Source of the DNA: a virus
IMG/VR virus record: IMGVR_UViG_3300044615_000294
Location: 1 to 64,000 of that record
DNA: 64,000 nucleotides
Direction: 5' to 3' (one strand)
Shown here: one piece after another, positions 22,273 through 24,378 of the stretch
Layout of the letters: every line of letters begins with the position of its first letter
Numbering within the stretch: position 1 is the first letter of the stretch
Position numbers and translations under genes: made by a program
Notes under the pieces: model-generated
Databases searched by the model: none
What the model saw: only the letters and a program-made list of their open reading frames with translations
Told to the model about the DNA's origin: nothing

Positions 22273-22552
22273 AATACAGGAGCTACGCGTCTTTCTTTTA
22301 ACTGTGTTTTACTCCTCTTGTTGTTAGTTAACACCGGTCTACAACGCATTAACCCGGTCAACAGCTTTAAACACTTATGGATTAAAATAAATTCCGGAAT
22401 AAGTTAGTTTAAATAAGTGTATGTAACTAACTGATTATTAACCCCTCTTTATATCCTTACCTAATTATCTTACTGTATTTTACTATACTAGTATAGTATA
22501 GTTAAGGATTTTATATAGCTAACTTGTTACTTAACCCTTAATACATTTAACT

Positions 22553-22780
22553 ATGCATAGAGCTACTTACTTCCTATATGGAGTTCTATTCTCTCTTACA
22601 GTATATACTGTGTTTTACTCTATAGGAAAGACAGAGAGAAAGACTCCGGTCAAAGGTATAGACCGAGAATATTATTTAGAAGTTTCCCAAGATAGTATTT
22701 GGGTTGAATCTAGACAAGGTCAAATTTATAGTGGTAAATATACAGACTTAGACAGTCTTATTACCATTGATAACTTATAA
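22553..22780 (+). CDS. Hypothetical protein with N-terminal TM
   Basis: ORF track. Confidence 0.55.
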   Translation: MHRATYFLYGVLFSLTVYTVFYSIGKTERKTPVKGIDREYYLEVSQDSIWVESRQGQIYSGKYTDLDSLITIDNL

Positions 22781-22784
22781 TTAA

Positions 22785-23025
22785 TTGCAATATAGTTTCT
22801 AACAGCCAGTAATGGTCATCCGAAGGTAGAGCTATAAGTTGAGAAGGATATACTTATCTAGGTATTGCAACCTTGTGAGAGTACAGATGGTGTAGAGATT
22901 GTAGTATAATGGACGCATTATATGAGGCTCTATATTCTATACAGGGGTCAGTATAGTCTTAAATTTTGTAACCTGAAGAGGGTTTTATAATACTAATCCT
23001 AGCAATGAGATACCCCATTGTTAGG
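22785..23025 (+). ncRNA. Candidate structured ncRNA upstream of the ribozyme
   Basis: ORF-free; at least five stems, G-U pairs, a GTAA tetraloop and two complementary loop pairs (ATCC/GGAT; GGGT/ACCC). Confidence 0.45.
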
Positions 23026-23141
23026 TATTAATGCACCATTCCTGATTCCCAAGGTCAGGCAGTTGTAATAGACCAATATCGGGAATAGAAAGGCTTCTCA
23101 ACAGCACACTCTAATCTATTACAACTGAGTGCAGAGGGATA
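23026..23141 (+). ncRNA. Twister self-cleaving ribozyme (type P1, extended P5)
   Basis: P1 TAT/ATA; L1 UAA; P2 TGCA/TGCA; T2 CC/GG; P4 CCTGA/TCAGG around TCCCAAGG; 12-bp P5 CAGTTGTAATAG/CTATTACAACTG; GAGGG 3' strand. Confidence 0.72.
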
Positions 23142-23184
23142 ATCAACTTATAGAAACTTTATTTATCAACTTAAAATTACACTT

Positions 23185-23529
23185 ATGAACAAAACAGTCC
23201 CTTTTGGTTACCATTCATTTGGTAGTCACACTCTGATTAAACTTAACATGAATCTTACATTTGAAGATGCTGTCGAACTTAGAAAACTATATGATTTCAA
23301 TGTCATGTACTGTAATAGTAAAAAGAAACCACATCTCTATAGAATAGAAGGTGTTATTTCATGGAATAACAGTGATGGAGAAAAATATATTAGTTGGTTT
23401 GAAAAACTAAAAGTTTGCCGAATTAATGCTAAGATGCACAAACTTGCATGTAAGAAACAAGCACTGTTAGATAGTGCATTAGGTATGGAAAATTATATCC
23501 AACCTGTTGATTTAGATTTACCCTTTTAA
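23185..23529 (+). CDS. Hypothetical protein ending in DLDLPF
   Basis: ORF track. Confidence 0.6.
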   Translation: MNKTVPFGYHSFGSHTLIKLNMNLTFEDAVELRKLYDFNVMYCNSKKKPHLYRIEGVISWNNSDGEKYISWFEKLKVCRINAKMHKLACKKQALLDSALGMENYIQPVDLDLPF

Positions 23530-24280: not shown

Positions 24281-24354
24281 GGTCCTGTAGCTCAGCTGGA
24301 TAGAGCAACTGCCTTCTAAGCAGTAGGTCTTTGGTTCGAATCCAAACAGGATCA
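24281..24354 (+). tRNA. tRNA-Arg (anticodon TCT)
   Basis: GGTCCTG/CAGGATC acceptor stem, TAGCTCAGCTGGATAGAGC D-arm, ACTGC-CTTCTAA-GCAGT anticodon arm, GGTTCGAATCC T-arm; CCA not encoded. Confidence 0.95.
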
Positions 24355-24378
24355 CTGTTATTAACCAAAATCACTTAT

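Follow-up and report, generated by a model that had tools for sequence, protein, structure and literature searches.

Near phage genes, self-cleaving ribozymes cluster together with unexplained structured RNAs, and the biological role of these ribozymes is still termed elusive (PMC6765202), and the locus described here raises the question of what the non-coding sequence beside such a ribozyme is and does. A first-pass annotation of the window (the whole stretch of 64,000 nucleotides that we analyzed) had placed a single structured RNA of approximately 245 nt here, made of two domains and ending at the cut site of a twister ribozyme. The window forms part of a 91-kb IMG/VR virus record whose gene content (portal, terminase, DNA polymerase, helicase and primase; ~33% G+C) is that of a tailed phage, and the phage that carries the locus is a freshwater one of ~113 kb. 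The gap in question is 404 nt long (22781-23184) and, by the ORF list, is indeed free of any ORF of at least 30 aa; it separates two small early ORFs on the + strand, p75 (22553-22780) and p114 (23185-23529), for neither of which PHROG gave a known family. Homologues of p75 occur on 16 viral contigs, and blastn of the gap, p75 and p114 against GenBank phages returned zero matches. A 15-nt phage motif with nine exact occurrences between 19726 and 22313 has none inside the gap, and a generic sigma-70 promoter and terminator scan of the gap gave background levels only; the gap is thus most simply read as part of a polycistronic + strand transcript. Its non-coding string sits in the 3' UTR of p75, and its far end is a conserved, A/U-rich leader of p114 (AACUUAUAGAAACUU..., 23143-23184, +) that also stands 3' of the twister in many relatives.

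The pairings drawn for the two domains, checked pair by pair, are all present in the sequence. Domain 1 is closed by TTGCAATA (22785-92) with TATTGCAA (22863-70), and encloses TAG(T)TTCTA (22793-801) with TAGAGCTA (22827-34), the hairpin CCA-GTAA-TGG (22806-15), TAAGT (22835-39) with ACTTA (22852-56), and GGAT (22846-49) with ATCC (22818-21). Domain 2, hereafter D2, holds GTGTAGAG (22890-97) with CTCTATAT (22928-35), TATAATG-GACG-CATTATA (22905-22), CTATAC-AGGGGTCA-GTATAG (22937-56) and CCTAGCAATG-AGATACCC-CATTGTTAGG (22998-23025). The annotation had recognised no family for either, and Rfam 15 agrees: across 22300-23400 it returned no match to domain 1, D2 or the twister even at E <= 10, the only match being a chance one to a snoRNA outside the region, and D2 homologues at two other loci (L068, L231) likewise matched nothing. 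Neither domain is a tRNA or tRNA-like by ARAGORN or the Rfam tRNA model. The sole tRNA of the window, tRNA-Arg(UCU) at 24281-24355, lies about 1.1 kb downstream and is conserved in most relatives.

To see how these elements are arranged elsewhere, we fetched 27 loci from viral contigs with p75 and p114 as anchors. The interval between the anchors is hypervariable, measuring 111 nt in one locus (L021) and 400-2500 nt, with differing inserted genes, in the others. The short version (L021:3226-3336) is an 'empty site' that holds one long hairpin, and the RNA string of the window is therefore, in its entirety, cargo that a phage can do without here. Elsewhere, blocks of the window gap recur independently of one another. 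In the window and its closest relative (L013) the order is A-D2-twister, A being domain 1; in L018/L010, L219 and L222 it is A-B-D2-twister with identical junction sequences, so that domain 1 and D2 are split by a module B of 105-150 nt. As the domains are independent in this way, and D2 also follows unrelated ORFs, the single ~245-nt RNA had to be given up. The best-supported reading of these comparisons is that the 245 nt would be a string of independent RNA modules, placed in the p75 3' UTR and p114 leader, and not one RNA family. The chain opens with domain 1 (module A) and continues with what a deletion has left of module B, then D2 and a twister-like ribozyme.

The modules coincide with mosaic breakpoints and flank early genes, which suggests that they are shuffled by recombination. 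T4-type phages offer a parallel in the promoter-early stem-loop (PeSL), reportedly described by Arbiol et al. in 2010 as a set of mobile regulatory cassettes. There, too, small early genes that are hypervariable lie between short, conserved stretches of non-coding DNA at which mosaic breakpoints fall, but the modules at our locus are elaborate RNAs and ribozymes rather than units of a promoter plus a stem-loop, and the gap carries no promoter motif.

Module B is a widespread uncatalogued RNA family. It is three-way-junction-like, with an outer stem (UACUCUCA/UGAGAGUA), the string UCCAA(UU)GCAGG, a variable middle and a hairpin CAAGG-RUUGCAA-CCUUG, and across 43 distinct full copies (examples are L010:2155-2269 and L231:313-364, both +) its ends and junctions are nearly invariant around a middle of 0-150 nt. 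The stems show some covariation: an outer-stem C-G pair becomes U-A in L221, and the hairpin has a G-U variant in L222/L066. The window and L013 retain only the last 14-20 nt of the module, in the window as a remnant (TTGCAA plus CCTTGTGAGAGTAC, 22865-22884, +) made up of the loop, the 3' strand of the hairpin and the 3' strand of the outer stem. The junction lies at a TTGCAA that ends A and recurs in the loop of B, so the 5' part of B was lost by deletion between these two short repeats. One minimal copy of B matches the DUF2693 RNA motif (RF02956) with 28 bits (E 6e-4 on 181 nt), far under the gathering score of 81.3 and with part of the score coming from sequence upstream of B; other copies of B gave no match at E <= 1. 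The two share an outer stem around a variable middle and a UYGCAA-loop hairpin followed by the outer 3' strand and AC, a likeness that is relevant to module B alone and not to domain 1 or D2. At one locus a free-standing HNH endonuclease gene (L068:2344-2907, -) lies between module B and D2, flanked by direct repeats of GTGAGAGTAC.

Is D2 then a real RNA fold? Pattern scans of IMG/VR and JGI metagenomes yielded homologues of 70-93% identity, and a covariance model built on seven sequences retrieves 16 distinct sequences at E <= 1e-27. RNAalifold on the first seven gave four hairpins with compensatory changes in 11 of 34 pairs; with all 16, 96.5% of the alignment cells are paired and 15 pairs have changed on both sides. 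None of 500 shuffles matched the observed covariation, and sliding one partner by 1-3 columns left only 25-51% of cells paired. Folding energy alone is a weak indicator here (z = -1.67 against shuffles). At several pairs, A-U and G-U replace one another when the + strand is read, which identifies that strand as the one that folds, and D2 is co-oriented with all flanking genes. Judged by these compensatory changes, D2 (22890-23025, +) is a genuine, new and uncatalogued structured RNA of the + strand.

Its first hairpin, H1 (22890-22935), consists of an outer stem (22892-97/22928-33) and an inner stem (22904-11/22916-23) around a conserved asymmetric internal loop, capped by an invariant GACG; all of its cells (100%) are paired, four pairs have changed on both sides, and several are + strand G-U pairs. 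H2 (CUAUAC/GUAUAG, 22937-22956) carries the conserved loop AGRGGUCA and compensatory changes in three of its six pairs, and H3 (22971-22982), with an invariant GAAG loop, has them in three of four. H4 (22998-23025) has 10 bp, four pairs with compensatory changes and the loop AGAUACCC, and ends 4 nt before the predicted ribozyme cut; at its 5' foot stands the single-stranded ACUAAUCC (22992-22999), identical in 16 of 16 sequences. The invariant single-stranded parts are thus GACG, AGRGGUCA, GAAG, the GAU(A/C)C of the last loop, the UGAGG of the H1 internal loop, and ACUAAUCC, for which a search by eye found no conserved pairing partner. The complementarity noted earlier between the last two loops is present, and it is accompanied by one correlated change: G at 22945 (G78) occurs with ACCC in the H4 loop, and A with ACCU or CCU. 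The helix between the H2 and H4 loops is 85% paired as aligned, but its register is ambiguous in one clade; a loop-loop contact is likely.

The distribution of D2 argues that it stands on its own. It is preceded by module B in the window-type loci and in L200, L221, L225, L222 and L235, and by the HNH gene in L068; in L177, L207, L226, L228, L220 and L224 it begins 10-20 nt after an ORF stop, in four lineages with nothing between. On its other side comes a twister in most lineages, UAC plus a U-run and then a gene in L231/L235, and module B directly in L220/L224. D2 can thus do without the twister and can precede or follow module B, which makes it an autonomous module; the genes that flank it differ and are unrelated between loci, which argues against a riboswitch-type regulon. 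When the D2 model was run on twister-bearing loci, the sole strong match besides a window-type copy (L105) was L068; weaker matches (L065, L078, L096, L125) were set aside as due to the module B remnant plus an H4-like hairpin rather than a full D2. Among prokaryote genomes the D2 pattern matched once, on a 3.5-kb contig of a lake MAG that also carries domain 1 and module B; we read this contig as phage DNA, so that no host can be inferred from it.

Two known kinds of RNA resemble D2 in part. Short strings like the R and S elements of a group I intron core (GUAGAGAUUGUAG, AAGAUAC), and the HNH gene beside D2 in L068, are reminiscent of an intron, a reading that we rejected: Intron_gpI gave no match at E <= 10, the covariation describes four plain independent hairpins with no P3/P7 pseudoknot, and D2 and module B occur in either order or apart, with no exons to join. 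The closer comparison is with the orphan RAGATH-type motifs. D2 resembles them as a conserved structured RNA in intergenic arrays, beside twister and hatchet ribozymes and near phage accessory genes, and like them it was found through ribozyme association, but it matches no catalogued motif (Rfam 15, E <= 10) and comes from large freshwater phages rather than Firmicute prophages. These motifs, orphan structured RNAs associated with self-cleaving ribozymes, are reportedly due to Weinberg et al. in 2015. Upstream of one D2 copy, L231:968-1121 bears a weak likeness to RAGATH-8 RNA (17 bits against a gathering score of 86.7, E 0.06) that is probably chance.

Domain 1 (module A, 22785-22870, +) presents a different picture. 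This near-invariant block of 86 nt, possibly a three-way-junction RNA whose fold is unproven, always lies directly 3' of the p75 stop codon, is single-copy and confined to that one locus, and is absent from the 'empty site' relative. All copies are at least 98% identical, even where p75 itself is only 69-97% identical, and the identity continues across the final ~60-70 nt of p75, a stretch that is exchanged jointly with domain 1; identity running into the 3' end of p75 in this way points to recent exchange. The predicted fold energy (22781-22874) is at the shuffled level on either strand (z = -0.08). Variation is limited to four transitions, one outside the pairs and three within predicted + strand pairs, each of which interchanges G-U and A-U; under a simple random-transition model, three pair-preserving changes of four have p ~0.06, which is suggestive only. 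Two degenerate pattern scans of IMG/VR for diverged copies recovered only near-identical ones, too alike for covariation to be judged, and chance matches in GC-rich coding DNA. The proposal of a real structured RNA therefore holds for D2, with its 16 homologues and 15 pairs changed on both sides, and does not extend to domain 1, where the z score and four variable sites give no such footing; likewise the argument from G-U pairs for structure at the RNA level on the plus strand stands for D2 at least, domain 1 being unproven. Homologue collection with covariation, suggested as a check in the first-pass annotation, thus came out strongly for one domain and met near-identical copies in the other. 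For the modular-RNA reading this is a weak point, as domain 1 brings it neither thermodynamic nor convincing comparative support.

Much of this could be expected if domain 1 and the TTGCAA-bounded junctions were DNA-level features, such as recombination linkers or protein-binding palindromes, that serve cassette exchange and have no RNA function. The near-identity beside a diverged p75 and its extension into the p75 3' end would fit, as would a fold no better than shuffles on both strands; domain 1 is also bounded by ATTGCAAT and TATTGCAA, with mosaic breakpoints falling exactly 3' of TTGCAA. Yet three of the four substitutions swap G-U and A-U within predicted + strand pairs, ATTGCAA is not enriched in the window, domain 1 is single-copy at one fixed locus, unlike a mobile element, and the idea is inapplicable to D2 with its wealth of compensatory changes. 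We regard the DNA-level explanation as rather improbable overall, and a more specific MITE-like or operator role for TTGCAA was rejected, because neither an excess of the word nor a second copy of domain 1 was found. Domain 1 was co-transferred with the end of p75, and may be an RNA.

Directly after D2 comes a twister-like ribozyme of type P1 with a large insert (23026-23142, +) and a predicted cut between U23029 and A23030. At least 119 viral stretches contain its 3' core (CAACTGAGTGCAGAGGG). The strands of P1 are the trinucleotides immediately 5' of the cut-site U and 3' of GAGGG(G); among 129 distinct copies, 76 have all three pairs, against a mean of 36 and a maximum of 48 in the shuffled control. 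P4 exists in at least nine compensatory versions, P2 changes from UGCAC/GUGCA to UGUAC/GUACA (C-G to U-A), and the CCC/GGG pseudoknot is invariant bar one copy, which has CAC/GUG. The energy of the region is also below that of shuffles (z = -2.47). Like twister type P1 (RF03160; Roth et al. 2014, as reviewed in PMC6765202), the element combines a U^AA cut site, P2, P4 with a UUCCCAAGG loop, the CCC/GGG pseudoknot, an optional large stem and a 3' GAGGG, and all stems co-vary. It differs in that P1 has only 3-4 bp, in that the second pseudoknot would apparently be CC/GG, invariant across copies, instead of the usual GC/GC, and in being missed by Rfam: the twister-P1, -P3 and -P5 models matched neither the window copy nor a compact 68-nt copy at E <= 10. 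The covariation of P1, P2, P4 and CCC/GGG supports a twister-type fold well, and on that comparative evidence we take it for a twister variant, so far uncatalogued and represented by no fewer than 129 distinct copies. D2 itself lies outside the twister. The compact variant (L015:4028-4095) is the one in which CAC/GUG replaces CCC/GGG, and several loci (L011, L012, L015, L040, L059) carry two or more twisters within ~1 kb.

How D2 meets the ribozyme bears directly on function. The last hairpin had been thought to overlap twister P1 and perhaps to compete with it, but the conserved P1 is only 3-4 nt long and follows the hairpin: its 5' strand is UAU at 23026-28 with the cut-site U at 23029, wholly 3' of H4, and in the minimum-energy fold of the whole gap both helices are present and adjacent, so that they coexist. 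Nor is a hairpin in this place peculiar to D2. Hairpins of at least 5 bp ending 2-6 nt before the cut are found in 55 of 108 distinct upstream contexts, compared with 130 of 600 random positions; many of them look terminator-like, and H4 fills this general slot. The sequences upstream of twisters otherwise fall into 67 unrelated clusters, with D2 making up six of the 108 contexts. Two recurrent elements were seen in the same position: UAAUCC, which besides the foot of H4 stands at the 5' foot of other hairpins that abut twisters (~15 of 108 contexts), and a 'module C' hairpin, CCURAGCAUG..AAACUGCUY, directly before many twister cuts and before module B (L006:1100-1142, L007:1020-1061, L119, L120).

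D2 thus ends exactly where the twister-like ribozyme should cut, and a ribozyme-defined 3' end is plausible from this arrangement. The account that we favor, to which we give somewhat better than an even chance, is that D2 serves as the structured 3'-terminal domain of the upstream message, its end set by cleavage at 23029/23030, in a gap of shufflable modules. The modules would be transcribed together with the flanking genes on the + strand; H4, immediately 5' of the 3-4 bp P1, could stack on P1, and the ribozyme would cut between U23029 and A23030. At its new 3' end the p75 message would carry the D2 fold, then four nucleotides and a 2',3'-cyclic phosphate, while the p114 message would begin with a 5'-OH twister body. 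D2 would then act in cis, its structured 3' end being the equivalent of a terminator hairpin with a protective or insulating role. Such a model fits proposals that bacterial twisters and hammerheads process polycistronic transcripts and have 3'-UTR effects (PMC6765202), with consequences for message stability. Several observations sit less well with it. A simple protective hairpin needs no four hairpins with invariant loops; D2 is also found without a twister; by the criterion used, only about half of the twisters have an abutting hairpin; and the Rfam twister models do not score the variant, even in its compact form. As D2 stands upstream of only six of the 108 twister contexts, protection or insulation cannot be its whole function, and its invariant loops suggest an additional, specific binding partner.

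The same invariance might instead mean that D2 is released, or works, as a stand-alone trans-acting ncRNA, for example by titrating a protein of the host or the phage as a decoy or sponge, perhaps in anti-defence, with the twister only trimming its 3' end. All four loops and ACUAAUCC stay constant while the stems co-vary, the flanking genes vary by locus as if D2 were gene-independent, D2 lies in a hypervariable early accessory region, and in several loci the structured module B directly 5' of it could mark a processing site. In the window, however, where B is deleted, no promoter motif or known cleavage site lies 5' of D2, four lineages start D2 10-20 nt past an ORF stop with nothing between, no discrete RNA has been observed, and contigs from RNA libraries bridge B into D2. 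We consider a trans-acting role unlikely, if the most credible of the alternatives. For the ribozyme-matured ncRNA of the annotation, it is the ribozyme-defined 3' end that stays plausible; the discrete small RNA finds no support, as no promoter-like motif or known processing site marks a 5' end.

The RNA-library contigs (X19, X20, X22 and X23, from four metatranscriptome studies) cover pieces of A, D2 and the twister; they include stretches that cross from A into B and from the end of B into D2, in mosaic contexts of the kind expected. These contigs give neither ends nor strand, DNA carry-over is possible and uncovered bins are uninformative, so they are a weak hint of expression, and for the 3'-end model they leave the ends unshown. 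In library X20, one contig lies inside the twister (window 23049-23136) with Illumina adapter remnants on both sides, which suggests an insert of ~88 nt.

Could D2 instead control the cut? A switch governing cleavage had been put forward as the other possible role, and in its fullest form D2 would be a ligand- or protein-responsive sensor that gates cleavage by the twister or, at loci with a U-run in its place, termination. H4 takes part both in the D2 tertiary fold, through its contact with the H2 loop, and in the neighborhood of P1; in L231/L235 it is followed by UAC and a U-run, like an expression platform; and the window taken alone has longer alternative pairings, GUUAGG with the 3' tail and GGGGUCAG with CUGAUUCCC. 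The P1 that shows covariation lies clear of H4, however, and the alternative pairings are lost in relatives, where P4 changes to CUCAC/GUGAG and other versions while the D2 loop stays GGUCAG, without co-variation, and the 3' tails differ; by eye, the pairing of the D2 loop GGGGUCAG with the twister CUGAUUCCC exists with one P4 version only. A comparison of the D2 loci against riboswitch criteria revealed no conserved mutually exclusive pairings and no coherent regulated gene set; the downstream genes are unrelated, unlike riboswitch regulons, and D2 also occurs 5' of module B. The switch idea therefore finds no support in these comparisons, and we judge a sensor role quite unlikely, although, if true, D2 gating the adjacent twister would be the first natural allosteric twister.

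A final alternative is that D2 or domain 1 itself represents a self-cleaving ribozyme of a new class, in the kind of neighborhood where ribozyme classes are known to cluster. New classes have historically been discovered through association with ribozyme clusters (PMC6765202), which is a point in favor of the idea here, and the same intergenic arrays of relatives hold hatchets (81-83 bits) as well as many twisters; stems that vary around constant junctions and loops also suit such a class. But no cleavage site is identifiable in the sequence, D2 exceeds most small ribozymes in size, two self-cleaving elements side by side would be redundant, and domain 1 lacks fold support, so that we hold a new ribozyme class to be very unlikely. 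Even pooled, with D2 as a sensor or protein-binding domain gating the twister on one hand and D2 or module B as a new self-cleaving class in a ribozyme-rich phage array on the other, these ideas have a slim chance. The hatchets were found by Rfam upstream in these arrays (L006:194-330, L007:258-395, L009:166-303), and together with the twisters they mean that related phages carry at least two ribozyme classes.

Returning to D2 as a 3'-terminal domain, the locus places a well-supported new RNA fold exactly at a predicted ribozyme-made 3' end, and it contributes two RNA families, D2 and B, and a twister variant of at least 129 distinct copies, all of them uncatalogued. Its relatives form a natural comparison series, from the empty site through A-D2-twister and A-B-D2-twister to D2 without a twister and D2 before B. 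The locus thereby permits direct tests of whether ribozymes punctuate phage operons, whether neighboring folds stabilize the resulting messages, and whether such modules drive the shuffling of cassettes.
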